This document shows positions 3,959 to 11,542 of a DNA stretch of 64,000 nt, one piece after another. Source of the DNA: a virus (Duplodnaviria > Caudoviricetes); the IMG/VR virus record IMGVR_UViG_3300047160_004777, positions 1 through 64,000 of that record. The stretch is one strand, 5' to 3'. Under the pieces are notes generated by a model. It was not told the DNA's origin and did no database searches. It saw nothing but the letters and a program-made list of their open reading frames with translations. A program made the translations under genes and the position numbers. Positions within the stretch are counted from its first letter, which is position 1, and each line of letters begins with the position of its first letter.

Positions 3959-5408
3959 TCGACTCAGGACCGACGCTGACATCGCCGGCCTGTTCCCGAT
4001 TCGCGTTGACGATCTGCGCGCGGTCGAAGCGTCGATGCGCGGAAGAGGTTATGACGCAGCCGAACCGTTAGTAGTGTGGGAAAGCACCGTCGTAGACGGG
4101 CATACACGGTTACGAGCGGCTGTCGCGGCGGGCGTTGAGCGGGTGTATGTCGATGAGCGGTCGTTTGCCGACAAGCGGGACGCGCTCGAATACGCGATTG
4201 CTCGCCAGCGCGACCGGCGCAATCTGACCAGGCCCGAGATGACCGCGTTCATCGTCCGCGCTATCGACGCACTGGATCGACTCAAGCCGGCCGGACAGAG
4301 AACAGACCTAGCCTCCGTGGAGGCTAGGTCTGGAAAGTCTGCCGCCGAGACCGCCGAGACGCTTGGCGTTAGCCGAGCCCAGGTCGAGCGCGTGCGGGCA
4401 GTCCAGTCATCAGAAAATGAGGCGGTCAAGCAGCAACTGCGGGAAGGGTCGGTTACGATTCGCGGGGCGTACGACGCGATCAAGCAAGAGACATCTGCGA
4501 AACAAGACTCTGCTGAGCCTGAACCGCTGCTCTTGTCAGTACAACTCGTGCCATCGCCGGGCATCATCAAGGCATCGTACTCGGTGGGCGACTGGCAAAC
4601 TTTGTCGGAGGAGCAGCGCGACGCTGTTCTCCGACAGGCTCCGTTACGGGAGCGAGCTACGTTCAATTGGGTAAATGAGCATATCGAGTGGGCGGGGTGG
4701 TCTTGGAATCCTGTAACCGGATGTTTACATAACTGCGCGTACTGCTACGCCAGGGATATCGCTGAGCGCTTTTACGGGCAGAAGTTCGCCCCGACATTTT
4801 TGCCAAGCCGTTTATATGCGCCGCGACACACAGTCCCAAAACCATTGCCGCCGGAACCTACAGCGGAAGATAGGATACGGCACAAGAGCGTGTTCGTATG
4901 CTCTATGGCTGACCTGTTCGGTAATTGGGTTCCGAAAGAGTGGGTTGGCGCTGTGTTCGACCAGATTGTGGCTTCGCCGCAGTGGAACTTCCTGTGCCTA
5001 ACGAAATTCCCACAGCGATTGGCGGAGATTCAATGGCCGGAAAACGCGTGGTGCGGAACCTCGGTCGATTATCAGTATCGGGTAGAGATCGCAGAGCGCT
5101 CGTTCCGTAACGTGCGAGCCGGTGTGAAATGGCTCTCGTGCGAACCGCTTATGGAACGCCTTACGTTCAAGTCTTTGGAGATGTTTGATTGGGTAGTGAT
5201 AGGTGCGGCGAGTCAAAGCACGCAGACGCCGGAGTTTCAACCGCCGTGGGAGTGGGTCGAACACCTGATCGGGCAGGCGCGGGCAGCCGGATGTAGTGTC
5301 TACGTAAAGCCCAATCTGAAGTCTCGTCCGCGCGAGTACCCGGCAAGCATTATGCCCAGGCCGAGTGTCGTGCCGAACGGTCGCATTCGAGGCAAGCGTG
5401 CAGGCTAG
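3939..5408 (+). CDS. ParB-N domain fused to DUF5131 (phage Gp37/Gp68, radical-SAM-like)
   Basis: N-terminal VVDGHTRLRAA (ParB); C-terminal WSWNPVTGCLHNCAYCYA, VFVCSMADLFG, FLCLTKFPQR, WCGTSV, WLSCEPL, DWVVIG. Confidence 0.85.
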   Translation: MRWIRTDRLRTDADIAGLFPIRVDDLRAVEASMRGRGYDAAEPLVVWESTVVDGHTRLRAAVAAGVERVYVDERSFADKRDALEYAIARQRDRRNLTRPEMTAFIVRAIDALDRLKPAGQRTDLASVEARSGKSAAETAETLGVSRAQVERVRAVQSSENEAVKQQLREGSVTIRGAYDAIKQETSAKQDSAEPEPLLLSVQLVPSPGIIKASYSVGDWQTLSEEQRDAVLRQAPLRERATFNWVNEHIEWAGWSWNPVTGCLHNCAYCYARDIAERFYGQKFAPTFLPSRLYAPRHTVPKPLPPEPTAEDRIRHKSVFVCSMADLFGNWVPKEWVGAVFDQIVASPQWNFLCLTKFPQRLAEIQWPENAWCGTSVDYQYRVEIAERSFRNVRAGVKWLSCEPLMERLTFKSLEMFDWVVIGAASQSTQTPEFQPPWEWVEHLIGQARAAGCSVYVKPNLKSRPREYPASIMPRPSVVPNGRIRGKRAG

Positions 5409-5766
5409 CTTCTTCGATCCCGGTGAGGGCAACCGGCTGCGCGATCACGCCATCGATCTCGTAGAAGCGCACGCCGGAGAAGATTGGCTGAGCTGCGCTG
5501 CGCGAGCGATCAAGATTCTCGCGCAGGGCCGCGACAAGTTCACGACGGATGCGGTGTGGGCGTTACTCGACGCGTGGGGAACGCTCCCGCCCCACGAGGA
5601 ACGGGCGATGGGGGCGGCGATGCGCGGTGCAGCACGCGATGGGATTGTATGGGCTACACCCGAACATGTTTTGTCGTCGCGTCCGGCCTGTCACCGTCGG
5701 CCGATCAGGGTGTGGCAGTCCAGGTTACGCCCTGGTCCGTCGGCGAGTATTTCGACGCCGACGTAG
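5398..5766 (+). CDS. conserved phage hypothetical protein
   Basis: FTTDAVW...RAMGA...RP.CH..P..VW.S pattern; GTG start overlaps the upstream stop region. Confidence 0.6.
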   Translation: MQASFFDPGEGNRLRDHAIDLVEAHAGEDWLSCAARAIKILAQGRDKFTTDAVWALLDAWGTLPPHEERAMGAAMRGAARDGIVWATPEHVLSSRPACHRRPIRVWQSRLRPGPSASISTPT

Positions 5767-5841
5767 AAAAGCGCCGGCCCGTCGGCACGTTGGTCCCGGT
5801 ACGCTGCGGGAGTGCGGACGTACCCAACGGTCAGGCGCGCG

Positions 5842-6000
5842 ATGGCGGCATTGCTCGCTGTCGCCGCCATCGTGTTGGGTGTAGTCGTTATGTTCGACCC
5901 GGACTTTCTCGAAACACGCGTTGTTTTAGGTGTGACGGACGTGTTATTGGGTGTGTCCATCGTGCTCGGTATTGTCGTGATTCGTTCACACTACGACTAG
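5842..6000 (+). CDS. small two-TM membrane protein
   Basis: Two hydrophobic stretches; lies just upstream of the holin-like gene. Confidence 0.55.
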   Translation: MAALLAVAAIVLGVVVMFDPDFLETRVVLGVTDVLLGVSIVLGIVVIRSHYD

Positions 6001-6003
6001 TGC

Positions 6004-6408
6004 ATGGACGTGACCAGCGAACAAATCACGGCGTACCTCGCGCAGTTTCGGTTGGAGTGGGTGGCGCTGTGCGTCATCCTCATCATCCTCGACGTGGCGT
6101 ATCTCGGGTTCCGTACGTTGACGCACAGTGCCCGCGAGCCGTTCGGAGCGTACCTGACTCAGCGAGTGGGAATCCTGCTTCTGTTATTGATCATCGGGCT
6201 TGTTGACTTTCTCATGCCGAACATCCCGCTTCTGTATATGGCGAGCTTGTTTTATTCCGGCGTGAGCGTGCTGCACATTGTCGCACAAGTTCGGGCAGAG
6301 GGAGTCACCGACATTCCGCCATCTTTCCAGAGGCGGGCGGAGCAACTTCGCGGGGAATTGACGCCAGACGATATGGCCCCACCCGGCCCGCCGGATAAAG
6401 GAGCGTAA
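6004..6408 (+). CDS. holin-like membrane protein
   Basis: Three hydrophobic segments and a charged C-terminus; FY...S......G...IP pattern resembles a phage holin family. Confidence 0.55.
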   Translation: MDVTSEQITAYLAQFRLEWVALCVILIILDVAYLGFRTLTHSAREPFGAYLTQRVGILLLLLIIGLVDFLMPNIPLLYMASLFYSGVSVLHIVAQVRAEGVTDIPPSFQRRAEQLRGELTPDDMAPPGPPDKGA

Positions 6409-6413
6409 CAACC

Positions 6414-6632
6414 ATGAGGTTTCCAGTCGGAACCAACCTGCCGAATAAGACCAAGTTGAGCGATGGATCGCACGCCTTTTTGATCCGGCGTGTACCGGCT
6501 CCGGCAACAGGCCACGCGCCCACGAAGAAGACAGCTACGGGGGTGTGCTTGGACGGAGCGAACCCTATTCCGATCCGGGTGTACGCGCTTGGCGACGGGA
6601 CGTACGCGCTCGGGGTGCAGCGACATGGCTGA
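6414..6632 (+). CDS. small hypothetical protein similar to the N-terminus of the adjacent collagen-like protein
   Basis: [19 protein letters not shown] versus [19 protein letters not shown] in the next gene. Confidence 0.6.
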
Positions 6633-8685
6633 TGCAACCATTGTTCTGGCTCCGGATAACCCGATTCCGGTGCGCGCGTTCGATAATGGTGACGGAACGT
6701 TTAGTCTTGCGGTAGTCGATACAGCAGCAGGCGGCGGGTCAGCGGCACCGAGCGGCGGCGGTGGAACAGGACCTCAGGGTCCAACGGGAGCCACCGGAGC
6801 CACTGGGTCGGCCGGACCCACTGGCCCGGTAGGACCGGCTGGACCGATAGGGCCTCCCGGACCAGCGGGGACTCCGGGGGCGACCGGACCTACTGGTACG
6901 CCGGGAGCTACGGGAGCCACCGGAGCTTCGGGACCCGCCGGTCCGGCTGGTACGGACGGACAGCCAGGCGCAGCAGGACCCCAAGGGGTCGCGGGACCTG
7001 CCGGCGATCCTGGCGCCGAAGGTCCAGTTGGACCGGCAGGACCCGCTGGTCCTCAGGGCGCGGCGGGAACAGGCATCAGTATCAAGGGGTCGGTCGCTGA
7101 TACGTCGCAGTTGCCGACGACTGGGAATTCGACTGGAGACGCCTACCTCATCTCGGGCGACCTGTGGGTTTGGGAAGGCGCGCAGTGGACGAACGCCGGT
7201 AACATTCAAGGACCGGCTGGTCCGGCGGGACCGACTGGCCCATCTGGACCACAAGGTGACGCGGGACCAGCCGGGACCGATGGGACTCCGGGCGTAGCAG
7301 GCGCGGTCGGCCAGACAGGTCCGGCCGGTCCGCAAGGCGATGTTGGTCCAGCAGGTGTCCAGGGGCCTGCTGGAGACACGGGTGCTGCGGGTGCTGTTGG
7401 CGCTACCGGCGCTACCGGCGCTGCTGGGCCACAGGGTGCTGTCGGCGCACGCGGTCCGACAGGACTTACGGGTCCGGCAGGTAATGACGGGGCAGTCGGC
7501 GCCACTGGTCCTCAGGGCACGCAAGGGCCGCAGGGTCTTCAGGGCGACCCCGGTCCAGCGGGGCCGGCGGGCTTACCAGGCGCCACGGGAGCAGACGGAG
7601 TTCAGGGACCTATAGGGCCGCAGGGCGCCGTAGGTCCTACGGGTTCTAGCGGACCGGCCGGGCCTCAAGGCGACACGGGGCTAGCCGGTCCGCAGGGTGC
7701 GGCCGGAGCAGCCGGTGCCAACGGCCAGGATGGGGCGACAGGTCCAGCGGGCGCCGAGGGACCGACTGGCGCAACCGGACCTACTGGACCACAGGGTCCG
7801 GCTGGTCCCCAAGGCACCGCCGGAACCAGCCTCACGCTCAAGGGCTCGGTCGCGAATCAGGCGGCGCTGCCGGCGACGGGCAACACGGCTGGCGACGCGT
7901 TCCTGATTGCTGGCGATCTTTGGGTTTGGTCTGGTACCGCGTGGAACGATACCGGCAGTATCCAAGGGCCGGCGGGACCGACCGGCGCTACGGGTCCGGC
8001 TGGTCCTCAGGGACCGCAGGGCAACGTCGGCCAGACAGGTCCGCAAGGTGTTGCGGGTGCCGCCGGGCCGCAAGGCGCGACTGGCGCGACTGGCGCTGCG
8101 GGTACGACCGGGGCGACGGGCGCTCAGGGGCTTCAGGGTCTAACGGGCGCTGCTGGACCGACCGGGCCACAGGGTACGACTGGGGCGACTGGGCCTCAGG
8201 GCAACACGGGCGCCACGGGTTCGACGGGAGCGCAAGGTCCGCAAGGGCTTCAGGGAGCTACCGGACCGACTGGGGCGACTGGGCCACAAGGAGTGCCGGG
8301 TCTGACCGTGGCGGGAACTGCTGACGGCGCAACGTCGGCTCCGTCCACGACCTCAACCGCCTACGCCGATATCACGGATATGGCTGTCACGTTCTCGACC
8401 ACGACGGTTGGCCACGTGATTGCGTGGATGTCGATAGGCTTCTCTTTGAACGCGAACAACATCGCCGCGAACTTTGGTTTGTCGTTGGACGCAGCGACAG
8501 AAGTTGGCGCGATTCAATCGGGCGTGGGCTCCAATAACGGCAAGAGTTCGACAATGGTTTTCGGGGTGTGGAACAACGTGGCGGTTGGTTCCCATACGAT
8601 CAAGGGTCGATGGCAGTTGACTGCCGCAGGGACGCTGACCGGAACAACTACGATGCGTCACTTGCTGGTGGCGACAGCGACATAA
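6625..8685 (+). CDS. collagen-like (Gly-X-Y) fibre protein with two KGSVA...GDA[YF]LI.GDLWVW modules and a C-terminal beta domain
   Basis: Long G-X-Y repeats interrupted by two similar globular modules; ATG 6625 chosen as start. Confidence 0.9.
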
Positions 8686-8848: not shown

Positions 8849-9136
8849 ATGAGCAAGTTGAGCATCCTCGTGAGCGGCAATCAGTCGCCGGTCGCGGGCA
8901 TCTATCAAAAGTACGGTATCGCCGCGCGGCAAGGCCACACGGTTATTGAGTTCGAGCCCGGTACCGAGCAGGCGCGAACCGCCGCCGCCGTGTTCTCGGA
9001 GTTGACGACGCTCTATCGCTTCACTGGTCTGGCGACGACCGTCGCGGACAACCCGACGCGGATCGAGCGGATCGACCCCGAAGCCATCATGGAGTCGGAA
9101 TACGTGTTGATCCCGCAGATCGCCGGGGGCGCGTGA
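8849..9136 (+). CDS. small protein ending ...PQIAGGA (GG-motif paralog 1)
   Basis: Alignable with 9614 and 10719; GAAAGGG upstream of ATG 8849. Confidence 0.75.
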   Translation: MSKLSILVSGNQSPVAGIYQKYGIAARQGHTVIEFEPGTEQARTAAAVFSELTTLYRFTGLATTVADNPTRIERIDPEAIMESEYVLIPQIAGGA

Positions 9137-9600
9137 TCGACCGACCTCGGGACGCTCGCGGGCGCTATATCAGTCGTTGGATGGTCCAGCCGGGGAGTTC
9201 CCCGGCTGCGGCCAATCCGTTGGAGACGGTCCCCATCGAAAAAATCCAGCACAGCGGACGTTACAAGTCTGCGGATTACAAGGAAGTCATCCGTAAGGTG
9301 CTGGTTGAGCTGCGAGCGGGGAATCAGGTCGAACTCTACGACCGCTATCTTTCGCCGTTTCAGTGGTCGGAGATGGAGCGAACAGGGTGGATTCCGGTAC
9401 GCGGGTCGAAGGGCCACATGTACTTCGTCTGCGCCCTGTACGGCTTTGCCATCTATCAGATCGAAAATTCGCGCGGGTACACCTATTGCTTTCATGTCGG
9501 GAGTGGGGACTACCTAGATTGCGCGATAGCGACCGTCCTACTCATCAGAGCCGACGAGGGACGGTTCCGCGCCGTGGCGAATCGGCAATCCTGTTACTAA
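9133..9600 (+). CDS. partner protein paralog 1 (conserved Cys/Asp domain)
   Basis: GTGA overlap with the upstream gene; domain alignable with 9915 and 10949. Confidence 0.75.
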   Translation: MIDRPRDARGRYISRWMVQPGSSPAAANPLETVPIEKIQHSGRYKSADYKEVIRKVLVELRAGNQVELYDRYLSPFQWSEMERTGWIPVRGSKGHMYFVCALYGFAIYQIENSRGYTYCFHVGSGDYLDCAIATVLLIRADEGRFRAVANRQSCY

Positions 9601-9613
9601 AAACGGGGGTTAT

Positions 9614-9898
9614 GTGAATACGCTCAAGATCATGTCGAACGTGTCGGATCTCCGGCTCAAGGCGCTGTTCCACACCTACGGTATTCCGGTACGCAGCGGT
9701 CACACGGTGATCGAGTACGAGCCGGAAACGGAGAAAGCCGAGGTTGCCAGGGTTGTCTTTGGCCAACTTACGACGCTCTTTCGCTTTACTGCCCTGGAGA
9801 CGACGGTTGCGGGTACTCCCCGGCGTATTACTACGCTCGACACCGATGCCGAGTCGGAGTCGGAAGTTGTCCTCATCCCGGCGATCTGCGGCGGATGA
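9614..9898 (+). CDS. small protein ending ...PAICGG (GG-motif paralog 2)
   Basis: Clear paralog of 8849 (YGI..R.GHTVIE.EP.TE...LTTL.RFT.L.TTVA). Confidence 0.75.
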   Translation: MNTLKIMSNVSDLRLKALFHTYGIPVRSGHTVIEYEPETEKAEVARVVFGQLTTLFRFTALETTVAGTPRRITTLDTDAESESEVVLIPAICGG

Positions 9899-9914
9899 GG
9901 CGCCGCCCGTCCCG

Positions 9915-10292
9915 ATGGAGAAAATCTACAACCGCAACTGTCTAAACGTTGTTCCGGAACCTCCATCGCGACAGCGGCTAACCTATCTCAAGCACAGTGT
10001 TGAAGGTGAGTTGTTCGAGCGGTTTCTCACGCCGTACCAGTGGTCGGAACTCAAGCGCACAGGTTGGGTTCCGGTCCTCGGATCGGCGGGAGGCCACTAC
10101 TACGTCTGTGTCGCACAGAAGATGTTCTACTCGCAAGTGATGCGGTTCGATGGAGAGCGGGGTTGCTCGTACTGCCTGAGTGTCGGCGGGGGCGTAAGCG
10201 TCCGCGACATGGCGATGGCGAAAATCCTGTTGCTTCAGGCCGACGAACCGTACTTCTGTGCGGTTGCAAACGGCACGCGTTGGCGAGTCTAG
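9915..10292 (+). CDS. partner protein paralog 2
   Basis: FLTPYQWSELKRTGWVPVLGS matches YLSPFQWSEMERTGWIPVRGS of 9133; start inferred. Confidence 0.7.
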   Translation: MEKIYNRNCLNVVPEPPSRQRLTYLKHSVEGELFERFLTPYQWSELKRTGWVPVLGSAGGHYYVCVAQKMFYSQVMRFDGERGCSYCLSVGGGVSVRDMAMAKILLLQADEPYFCAVANGTRWRV

Positions 10293-10362
10293 TTTCTGAA
10301 CACGAGACAAGGAGTCGCCTTCGACCCCGCAGCTTCTTGTCTCGTTGATCGGAGGAAGTCAC

Positions 10363-10722
10363 ATGTTGGCGATAGCTGAGCCCAAGACAGAAGAACTGGA
10401 TACACAAACTGTCCTACCGGGCGTCGAAGGGCCGGCCGAATGGCCGACGCGTATCCAGATCAGAGTCACCGACGAGGACATCTTGCTCGGCGCGCGGTCG
10501 AGTATCGAACAGTGCCCGATAGCTCGGGCGTTGCGGCGTTGGGTGTCTCTGAACGGATACCCGGTCGTTGTGATCGAGGTGCGGAACAAGCGCGCTCGCG
10601 TCGGTATGTGGCACTTCCAGCACGACGCCGAGCACTTCGTGCGGAACTTCGATCACAAGAAAGACGTGTACGAAACCTGGGTCAATCTCCGACGAACCAG
10701 GAAAGTGAGCGGTATGCGATGA
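10363..10722 (+). CDS. hypothetical protein
   Basis: GGAGG RBS upstream; I.VT.EDI..G......CPIARAL pattern. Confidence 0.65.
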   Translation: MLAIAEPKTEELDTQTVLPGVEGPAEWPTRIQIRVTDEDILLGARSSIEQCPIARALRRWVSLNGYPVVVIEVRNKRARVGMWHFQHDAEHFVRNFDHKKDVYETWVNLRRTRKVSGMR

Positions 10723-10949
10723 CGGTTAGCGAAATGCGAATTATGGGCGGGTCCGGCGATACGAAGGTGATGTGGGACTCCGAACAGGAAGCGGAAGTGG
10801 AGAACGCGCGTCGTACCTTCAATGACTTGCGCGGTCGCGGCTACGCTGCGTTCGCGGTCCGTACCTCAGGCGAGAAGGGTCGGCAGGTCACCGAGTTCGA
10901 TCCCGAAGCCGAGAAACTTATCATGGTGCCGCAGATCGCGGGTGGTTGA
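10719..10949 (+). CDS. small protein ending ...PQIAGG (GG-motif paralog 3)
   Basis: ATGA overlap with the upstream gene; C-terminus FDPEAEKLIMVPQIAGG. Confidence 0.75.
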   Translation: MTVSEMRIMGGSGDTKVMWDSEQEAEVENARRTFNDLRGRGYAAFAVRTSGEKGRQVTEFDPEAEKLIMVPQIAGG

Positions 10950-11542
10950 TGGCTACCTGGACGACGTGGACCGGCACGTCGAGCGCCACGACCACGGGGA
11001 TCGTCTGGAACTACTGGAACACAGGCGCAGGGAACACCACGACGGTCTATACGGCCGACTTCCCTCAGTTGATATGGGCGAATTGGGTCAACGCGACGGC
11101 AACGACAACGATTGCTTCCGGCTGGAAGAGTCCTACGTATTGTCCGCCTGTTCTCAGTCCCGAAGAACAGGCGGCGGAGCGTGTCGCGCGAGCCGAACGC
11201 GAAGAGCGAGCAGTGAAAGAGCGAGCTGACCACGAACAAGCCGTTCAGCGAGCCGAGATACTGCTCAACGAACATCTGAACGCGGCACAGCGTAGTCAGT
11301 TGAAGGCTCGCGGTCGCTTCAAGCTGCGGTCGCAACGTGGCTCGTGGTACGAGATTCGGCGCGGGCACCACAGCAACGTGGTTCGGTTGAACGAAGATGG
11401 GCAACCGACTGAGACGCTGTGCGTCTACGCGCGGGGCGGCGTGCCCGACGCGGATTGCATGTTGGCGCAGAAGTTGTATCTGGAGATGAACGAAGATCGG
11501 CTGCGCGAGGTAGCGCACATTACGCCAGCAGGGGGCTTTTAG
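10949..11542 (+). CDS. partner protein paralog 3 (Trp/Thr-rich N-terminus, coiled coil, conserved C-terminal domain)
   Basis: TGATG coupling to the upstream gene; LCVYARGGVPDADCMLAQKLYLEMNEDRLREVA aligns with the other partners. Confidence 0.75.
   Translation: MATWTTWTGTSSATTTGIVWNYWNTGAGNTTTVYTADFPQLIWANWVNATATTTIASGWKSPTYCPPVLSPEEQAAERVARAEREERAVKERADHEQAVQRAEILLNEHLNAAQRSQLKARGRFKLRSQRGSWYEIRRGHHSNVVRLNEDGQPTETLCVYARGGVPDADCMLAQKLYLEMNEDRLREVAHITPAGGF

Follow-up and report, generated by a model that had tools for sequence, protein, structure and literature searches.

So far, ubiquitin-like conjugation has been linked in prokaryotes either to bacterial defence or to metabolism, and an activating enzyme (E1) takes part in almost every described system. 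For the genes considered here, the nearest precedent appears to be the E2-only form of the cyclic-oligonucleotide-based antiphage signalling system (CBASS), in which a stand-alone conjugating enzyme (E2) cuts after the C-terminal Gly of cGAS, removing the trailing residues, and in which Cys-thioester and Lys-isopeptide bonds are formed without an E1, both the Cys and the His of the E2 being required (bioRxiv 10.1101/2022.05.25.493364). In the same line, prokaryotic E2-like proteins carrying a conserved His C-terminal to the Cys were described by Iyer et al. (PMC1779556). The subject of the present analysis is a tandem of three gene pairs located on the + strand at positions 8849-11542 of a 64,000-nucleotide stretch, hereafter the window, which corresponds to positions 1 to 64,000 of IMGVR_UViG_3300047160_004777, a 79-kb phage record of the IMG/VR database that comes from soil and has an estimated completeness of 63%. 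Each pair consists of a gene for a small protein with a Gly-Gly end and of a gene for a partner protein. These pairs belong to a widespread yet undescribed, phage-borne and E1-less module. Taken together, the data suggest, with a probability that we would set at about 0.4, that this module is of the conjugation type, in which a ubiquitin-like protein (Ubl) would work with a minimal proto-E2.

The small protein was compared with 34 homologues obtained by a word-indexed search, mostly 74-76 amino acids (aa) long, which share the motifs GDTK-x2-W-D, EVENARRTF, GYAAF and FDP-x-AE and end with V-P-x-x-A-G-G. The Gly-Gly endings reported for the three small proteins by a first-pass annotation, made from the DNA letters, are indeed present (IAGGA, ICGG and IAGG). 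That annotation had made its ubiquitin-like reading depend on the retention of Gly-Gly by the homologues, and the motif is retained: among 35 distinct loci, 29 small proteins end exactly with Gly-Gly, two with Gly-Gly plus one residue and two with Ala-Gly, which makes 31 of 35 when the one-residue extensions are included, while the database homologues carry it in 33 cases out of 34 and add GG-A, GG-I, GG-V and GG-ASGL ends. All four Gly codons occur at both positions, indicating that Gly-Gly is selected at the protein level, and the residues preceding this tail are conserved at that level as well. Besides, the two GGN codons constitute a GGNGG Shine-Dalgarno-like motif located 4-10 nucleotides (nt) 5' of the partner start (window positions 9122-9136 and 10938-10951; loci L002-L042), so that the same bases encode the tail of the small protein and supply the ribosome-binding site of its partner. 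The idea that Gly-Gly is kept solely as a ribosome-binding site was rejected on account of the use of all four Gly codons and of the persistence of Gly-Gly in fusions, in reversed gene order and ahead of long spacers. As a separate observation, a 213-aa metagenomic protein (P0203) carries a Ubl that continues past GG-L into a Cys-rich segment and then into an HNH-endonuclease-like C-terminus.

On the side of the partner, a profile built from 37 cores recovers 11,814 representatives of 50%-identity clusters at an expect value (E) <= 1e-3, and 7,605 at E <= 1e-10. A typical partner is about 200 aa long and is organised as a Thr/Ser-rich N-terminal half with repeated W-x-x-W motifs (118 of 149 representatives), followed by a long charged helix and by a C-terminal core of about 100 aa. 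The Cys and the Asp that the first-pass annotation had called invariant are the only invariant columns in the 37 locus-derived cores. The same annotation had held that its reading would fall with the loss of the Cys in homologues; among the best 149 representatives, Cys66 and Asp77 are both found at 100%, ahead of Asn51, Pro74, Gln82 and Asn98 at 99% and of a His at Cys+2 in 134 of them (90%). The Cys is followed by an H-P-x3-V-P-x2-D stretch. A role of the His in trimming was considered and set aside, given that its presence shows no link with GG-x ends or with fusions, the fusion of locus L015 having a Tyr and the GGA pair of locus L043 a Gln at that position. The repeated N-terminal motif reads hydrophobic-W-x-x-W(-N), with two to four copies per partner, in a region where the AlphaFold confidence is low. 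This Trp/Thr-rich N-terminus could be a target-binding region.

The genomic linkage between the two families is tight. The small protein led to 36 viral loci, and in 35 of them the partner gene is a neighbour of the small gene and is coupled to it in translation, following it directly in most, with a gap of 0-8 nt; the order is reversed in L035, three partner copies are present in L022, and a 370-nt gap separates the genes in L024/L025. An in-frame Ubl-GG-x-partner fusion exists in a complete 435-kb phage found in two metagenomes (L015/L016), and a second, AT-rich fusion lineage (P0201/P0202) is unrelated to it. An all-against-all clustering of 508 open reading frames from 33 loci yielded no recurring neighbour besides the pair itself. 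From this adjacency, from the fusions and from the lack of any other recurring neighbour, it follows that the pair represents a self-contained cassette, the products of which, judging from gene organisation, almost certainly interact. Covariation between the two proteins, measured as mutual information with average product correction over 29 pairs, was dominated by the clade signal.

The absence of E1 and JAB genes reported for the window extends to the whole 79-kb record, in which neither a ThiF nor a JAB gene was found. In the gene neighbourhoods of homologues, where the first-pass annotation had proposed to look for Gly-Gly conservation together with linked E1 and JAB genes, the former is observed and the latter are not, no E1 being located within 5 kb in 33 loci. 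Of the nine phage genomes that carry the pair and are at least 90% complete, a single one has ThiF. In this complete 436-kb phage (G002), three genes lie within 4 kb of one another, namely a JAB-like gene, a short ThiF-family gene of 194 aa and, in convergent orientation, a partner-family gene of 324 aa (locus L048, G002:331000-345000, at about 4504-8343 of that locus). This partner-family gene is solo, with no adjoining Ubl, and has the ThiF-like and JAB-like genes at about 1 kb, which is the sole E1 proximity seen for the family. A general link to E1 was rejected on this basis, G002 being a single case and the other genomes having no ThiF. The genomic situation is thus that of E2-only CBASS, namely a stand-alone E2-like gene without linked E1 or JAB, with GG-x precursors and fusions in existence.

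The natural fusion of L015 was folded with AlphaFold from a block alignment (A8), in which each core row has 13 helix residues out of place; two other alignments were set aside, A7 because full-length partners were misaligned onto the small domain, and A9, made with trimmed cores, because it was worse than A7. In the retained model, the small domain (residues 1-72) and the helix with the core (230-356) both exceed 90 in the predicted local distance difference test (pLDDT), no order is predicted for the linker, 36% of the chain being disordered, and the predicted template-modelling score (pTM) is 0.67. The small domain, whose residues range from 81 to 97 in pLDDT, shows the order b-b-a-b-b-b. 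The largest rigid unit of the model represents only about 36% of the chain, so that a pTM of 0.67 would imply that both domains were placed in one frame, and the two domains of the fusion may therefore hold one fixed arrangement. Furthermore, the strand that carries the Cys gains three residues in the fusion model relative to a core-only model, and the M-Q-G tail of the small protein adopts a strand conformation; these two features fit a pairing of the tail beside the Cys, without proving it. The core of the pair-3 partner, modelled with a pLDDT of 95.6 and a pTM of 0.87, displays the succession helix-helix-b1-b2-b3-b4(Cys)-loop-helix.

The models were compared with 48,161 PDB representatives by VIA-align, a tool for which a Z-score below 8 may mean a mere common arrangement. 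For both partner models Ubc9 came first (Z 5.3 and 5.1, root-mean-square deviation 3.0-3.1 A, 82-83 residues aligned), followed by RWD domains (Z 4.1-4.8), UEV, FANCL, several E2s and BubCD (Z 2.9), which together account for at least 20 of the top 50 rows. In the case of the small domain (residues 1-69), all matches were beta-grasp proteins (PKD ULD, PB1, RBD, TtuB and Ufm1; Z 3.0-4.3), which speaks, through the L015 fusion homologue, for the beta-grasp fold that the first-pass annotation had proposed to look for by structure prediction. Its broader idea of a ubiquitin-like logic is likewise strengthened by the two predicted folds (beta-grasp and E2/RWD/UEV), by the gene coupling and by the natural fusions, although the fold matches are weak; the fold assignment proposed here draws on the consistency of the hit lists rather than on single scores. 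In the BFVD database, the partner core model matches only uncharacterised viral proteins. One of them, the 397-aa A0A2L0UZL2 of the cultured jumbo Agrobacterium phage Atu_ph07, is aligned with a TM-score of 0.71 by query, a Foldseek probability of 1.00 and 12% identity, and is a possible distant homologue of the partner.

The six window proteins have no match in Pfam at E up to 1, including ThiS/MoaD, UQ_con, Prok-E2_A to E, UFC1, RWD and UEV. At the same limit the partner has none in NCBIfam or PADLOC, and neither the six proteins, nor the L015 fusion, nor an L022 partner have a meaningful match in PHROGs, PADLOC or NCBIfam. PDB sequence profiles returned nothing for the small protein or the partner, and the Atlas clusters of both families are unnamed and mostly viral. 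In cultured-phage records, the partner has zero tblastn matches and the small protein matches only two entries, LR756511 and Rctr197k, both uncultured; a blastn search with the region matched nothing, and a pattern scan of the GTDB species genomes with the small family found nothing. Full-text literature searches revealed no description of a phage pair of Ubl and E2-like proteins.

According to the model that we favour, the two proteins of each pair would function together in a complex. The small protein would be a ubiquitin-like beta-grasp protein whose function requires the Gly-Gly C-terminus, and the partner would associate a variable Trp/Thr-rich N-terminus with a minimal E2/RWD-like C-terminal domain, probably dimerising through its long helix. 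An active-site-like cluster would be formed by the invariant Cys and Asp, together with the Asn, the Gln and the His at Cys+2 that are present in 90-99% of mainstream members. The tail of the Ubl would run along the Cys-bearing strand, and its terminal Gly would be loaded on the Cys as a thioester. As the phage has no E1, such loading would be ensured either by self-processing or by a host enzyme: in precursor and fused forms, the Cys may attack the Gly-X bond as in E2-only CBASS, or else the Ubl may be activated by a host adenylyltransferase of the ThiF/MoeB type. The Ubl would then be passed on to a target picked by the variable N-terminus of the partner.

Several observations weigh against this conjugation model. 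Most small proteins end with a free Gly-Gly and therefore offer no leaving group for E1-free loading, so that either activation by a host ThiF/MoeB enzyme or a non-covalent function is needed. The partner has no His-Pro-Asn (HPN) motif, and its Cys closes strand 4 and stands at the head of a connector of about eight residues rather than an E2 active-site loop of about 30. Two of the three window copies lack the His at Cys+2, as does the L015 fusion; the full Cys-His-Asp-Asn-Gln set is present in none of the three window partners, only Cys and Asp being universal. In addition, the fold similarity is weak, with Z-scores of 5.3 at most and hence under the reliable level of the tool, Foldseek retrieved nothing from the PDB at E <= 1e-3 for either model, and the proximity of Gly-Gly to the Cys is read from indirect signs of the model (pTM and strand length).

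A non-covalent association would accommodate a good part of these points. The partner would then be an RWD/UEV-like adaptor borne on a coiled coil, comparable to Mad1-CTD and to the kinetochore RWDs, its Cys and Asp would serve binding or structure, and the role of the pair would be that of a scaffold, or else of a decoy for, or an inhibitor of, the Ubl machinery of the host, for instance Bil, Bub, the Cap2 E1/E2 of CBASS or ThiF/MoeB. The RWD and UEV scores are close to that of Ubc9, the coiled-coil RWD protein Mad1-CTD is present in the first Foldseek list, the lack of E1 and HPN, the RWD-like shortness of the connector and the window copies devoid of His, Asn or Gln would all be expected, and pure binding is compatible with the fusions; the HP-x3-VP motif of the partner presumably also resembles the YPxxxP motif of RWD domains. 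We nevertheless regard this explanation as somewhat unlikely, because a surface used for binding alone would not usually keep one Cys and one Asp without exception in members that diverge so strongly, nor conserve Asn, Gln and His along with them, and because a strictly conserved free Gly-Gly, at times extended by one residue, typifies Ubls that are activated or conjugated and not Ubl domains that only bind.

The same Gly-Gly could also belong to a sulfur carrier of the ThiS/MoaD/TtuB type, converted to a thiocarboxylate by a host E1, with the partner Cys relaying or accepting sulfur for a thio-modification. The beta-grasp matches include TtuB (Z 3.4), ThiS is the nearest Pfam-named Atlas cluster of the small protein (with a weak score of 0.75), ThiF-family enzymes exist in essentially all hosts, and the tail of the small protein (hydrophobic residues, then P-P/Q-V/I-A-G-G) is, we assume, similar to the C-terminus of MoaD. 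However, the ThiS/MoaD profiles give no match at E up to 1, genes for a sulfurtransferase, a rhodanese or a PP-loop protein do not recur in the neighbourhood, and the predicted fold of the partner is E2/RWD-like rather than MoaE- or TtuA-like, so that sulfur transfer seems very improbable. Finally, the pair might have nothing to do with ubiquitin chemistry and instead correspond to a toxin-antitoxin-like or regulator-ligand pair, the folds and the Gly-Gly being coincidental and the latter partly kept as a ribosome-binding site. The fold scores, all under the reliable level, the GGNGG motif 4-10 nt before the partner start and the mobile, self-contained two-gene organisation, as in toxin-antitoxin pairs, leave room for such a view. 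It is, however, hard to reconcile with two independent folds pointing to one biochemical system, with the maintenance of Gly-Gly in fusions, in the reversed order of L035 and ahead of 16-nt and 370-nt spacers, with the protein-level conservation of the tail residues before Gly-Gly and with the lack of any PADLOC model matching either protein, and it appears quite improbable. The other alternative of the first-pass annotation, a peptide/receptor pair that had diversified against host defences, met with neither support nor contradiction in these data.

The three copies of the window (Table 1) can now be placed within these families. The six open reading frames are all present where the first-pass annotation had located them, and its notion of a triplicated module is borne out, by pairwise comparison for pairs 1 and 2 and by the family profiles for pair 3. 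More precisely, small proteins 1 and 2 share 51% identity (E 9e-33) and partners 1 and 2 share 44% (E 4e-28), while pair 3 matches pair 1 with an E of 3e-5 for the small protein and also for the partner, which is weak taken alone; since searches with the family profiles find every one of the three copies, for the small protein and for the partner alike, with E from 1e-17 to 1e-43, pair 3 can be considered a distant relative of pairs 1 and 2, which are themselves clear paralogues by this comparison. The tandem is composed of diversified paralogues, one of type A and two of type B. Except for the Tyr in place of the His at Cys+2, pair 3 is of the mainstream type A. Pairs 1 and 2 are of the rare type B, in which the small protein has GHT instead of GDT and an extra N-terminal segment of about 20 aa, and in which the partner is devoid of the Trp/Thr-rich N-terminus, of the Asn and of the Gln, the His being found in the first copy only.

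Table 1. Features of the three gene pairs and of the intervening gene, with positions in the window
Feature	Position	Strand	Description
Small protein B1	8849..9136	+	95 aa; type B; end IAGG-A; small-family hidden Markov model 4e-17; gene caller agrees (P0012)
Partner B1	9133..9600	+	155 aa from GTG 9133 or 139 aa from ATG 9181; family profile 7.6e-32
Partner B1, details	core ~9301-9597; Cys codon 9487; Asp codon 9517	+	His at Cys+2 present; without the family Asn and Gln
Small protein B2	9614..9898	+	94 aa; type B; end ICGG; small-family profile 1e-18
Partner B2 (P0003)	9915..10292; Cys codon 10173; Asp codon 10206	+	125 aa, nearly the core domain alone; without His, Asn and Gln
Intervening open reading frame between pairs 2 and 3	10345..10722	+	125 aa; in neither family; PHROG 19191 (unknown function), E 2e-7; no Pfam family match
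Small protein A (P0013)	10719..10949	+	76 aa; mainstream; GDTK...W-D, EVENARRTF and FDPEAE; end VPQIAGG; profile 2e-39
Partner A (P0001)	10949..11542	+	197 aa; Thr/Trp-rich N-terminus, charged helix and C-terminal core; profile 5e-43
Partner A, details	core 11225-11539; Cys codon 11420; Asp codon 11453	+	Tyr at Cys+2, where His is usual
Partner A, W-x-x-W motifs	from 10958, 11006 and 11075	+	three motifs, within the Thr/Trp-rich N-terminus

Regarding the junctions, overlapping codons had been read in two of the pairs. This holds for pair 3, in which the stop TGA and the start ATG at 10949 have one base in common (TGATG), and for pair 1 only if the partner starts with the GTG at 9133 (GTGA overlap), the gene caller (P0002) preferring the ATG at 9181; the genes of pair 2 are separated by a 16-nt spacer. 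No promoter-like site was found between the three pairs, and terminator-like sites are no more frequent there than in shuffled sequence, which suggests that the pairs are probably co-transcribed. The combination of types A and B is also found in L043, a fragment of a related soil phage in which one type B and one type A pair, with two small genes between them, occupy positions 4001-5868, and whose type A small protein hardly differs from that of the window. This combination would thus be older than the phage studied here, for which the triplication and the divergent type B subfamily are the particular features as far as the sequences compared go. Rad52-like and IstB-like genes lie upstream of the L043 module, which assigns it to a region of early or replication genes and not to one of tail genes.

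Upstream of the tandem, the window carries on the + strand (6490-8685) a gene for a collagen-repeat protein of about 690-730 aa (Pfam Collagen, E 7e-62, eight stretches), which is probably a tail fibre. This protein is also interrupted twice by an insert of about 50 aa that is not collagen; the two inserts are nearly identical, each with a ...GDA-Y/F-LI-x-GDLWVW-x-G segment. The position of the pairs, in a stretch of accessory genes behind the tail-fibre gene, fits a role in host takeover or counter-defence.

If the partner Cys does take the Ubl, the single precedent of E2-only CBASS would be extended to true beta-grasp Ubls, bacterial viruses would be found to tag proteins, and a minimal and tractable pair (76 aa plus about 100 aa) would become available for studying the origin of E2 chemistry. 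In a further-reaching version, which we deem unlikely, the module would be a self-sufficient phage tagging system independent of E1 and ATP, in which a proto-E2 of about 100 aa with a Cys(-His)-Asp site takes up its own Ubl by the Gly-Gly tail and attaches it to host or phage proteins chosen via the Trp/Thr-rich N-terminus. Were this true, the tandem paralogues of the present phage would widen the target range, the more than 10,000 sequence clusters would be among the most abundant ubiquitin-type systems outside eukaryotes, and the module would offer a plausible model for a pre-E1 stage of ubiquitin signalling. Should the pair rather be a non-covalent decoy, it would be a candidate inhibitor of the Bil, Bub or Cap2-type defences.

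Compared with the known systems, the conjugation-type module proposed here shares with ThiS, MoaD, TtuB, SAMP and Urm1 a small protein with a Gly-Gly end, here of predicted beta-grasp fold, and a reliance on a housekeeping E1 of the ThiF family is conceivable; it differs from them by the lack of any profile match and of an E1, MoaE, ThiG or TtuA partner, the linked protein being E2/RWD-like. The TAPI protein of lambda and T1, encoded with TAPK (PMC1779556), is likewise a phage beta-grasp Ubl with a conserved C-terminal Gly that is at times fused to its partner, and the pairs of the window are near tail genes as well. However, the partner of TAPI is a JAB plus NlpC/P60 peptidase whereas the present one is E2-like, and the module does not consistently reside in tail regions, being found beside SbcCD-like genes (Metallophos, SMC_N) in L002 and beside the Rad52-like and IstB-like genes in L043. 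With the RWD and UEV domains (GCN2, RWDD1/2, Tsg101/Vps23, FANCL and the kinetochore RWDs), the partner core has in common, in its predicted structure, a minimal alpha-beta4-alpha sandwich, a short connector from strand 4 to the helix and a Pro-rich loop; these domains often come after a coiled coil, and UEV domains bind ubiquitin. Unlike the partner family, with its invariant Cys and Asp, they have no catalytic Cys, and no profile relationship links the two.

The bacterial Bil (BilABCD) and Bub (6E/DUF6527) operons combine a Ubl with a terminal Gly and an E2-like Cys enzyme (PMC10557695, PMC11601596, PMC11601603; bioRxiv 10.1101/2023.09.04.556158) and play a role in phage-host conflict. Bub includes Ubl-E2 fusions, and BubCD is among the weak fold matches obtained here. 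These operons, however, always comprise an E1 and a JAB or other peptidase, whereas the present module has no linked E1 or JAB and no PADLOC or Pfam match. As for the E2-only (type II short) CBASS, its substrate is a nucleotidyltransferase (CdnG/cGAS) and not a predicted beta-grasp Ubl, its E2 is a recognisable UBC homologue whereas the partner is about 100 aa long, without E2 profile match or HPN loop, and it is a bacterial defence, whereas the module described here is phage-borne and its His is not invariant. The likeness lies in the logic: in both cases a protein of E2 fold, in the present module a putative one, would act on the C-terminal Gly of its partner without E1 or JAB (bioRxiv 10.1101/2022.05.25.493364; PMC12948482), the CBASS enzyme receiving the tail in its Cys pocket, removing by itself the trailing residue or fused protein, and relying on a catalytic Cys and a nearby His.

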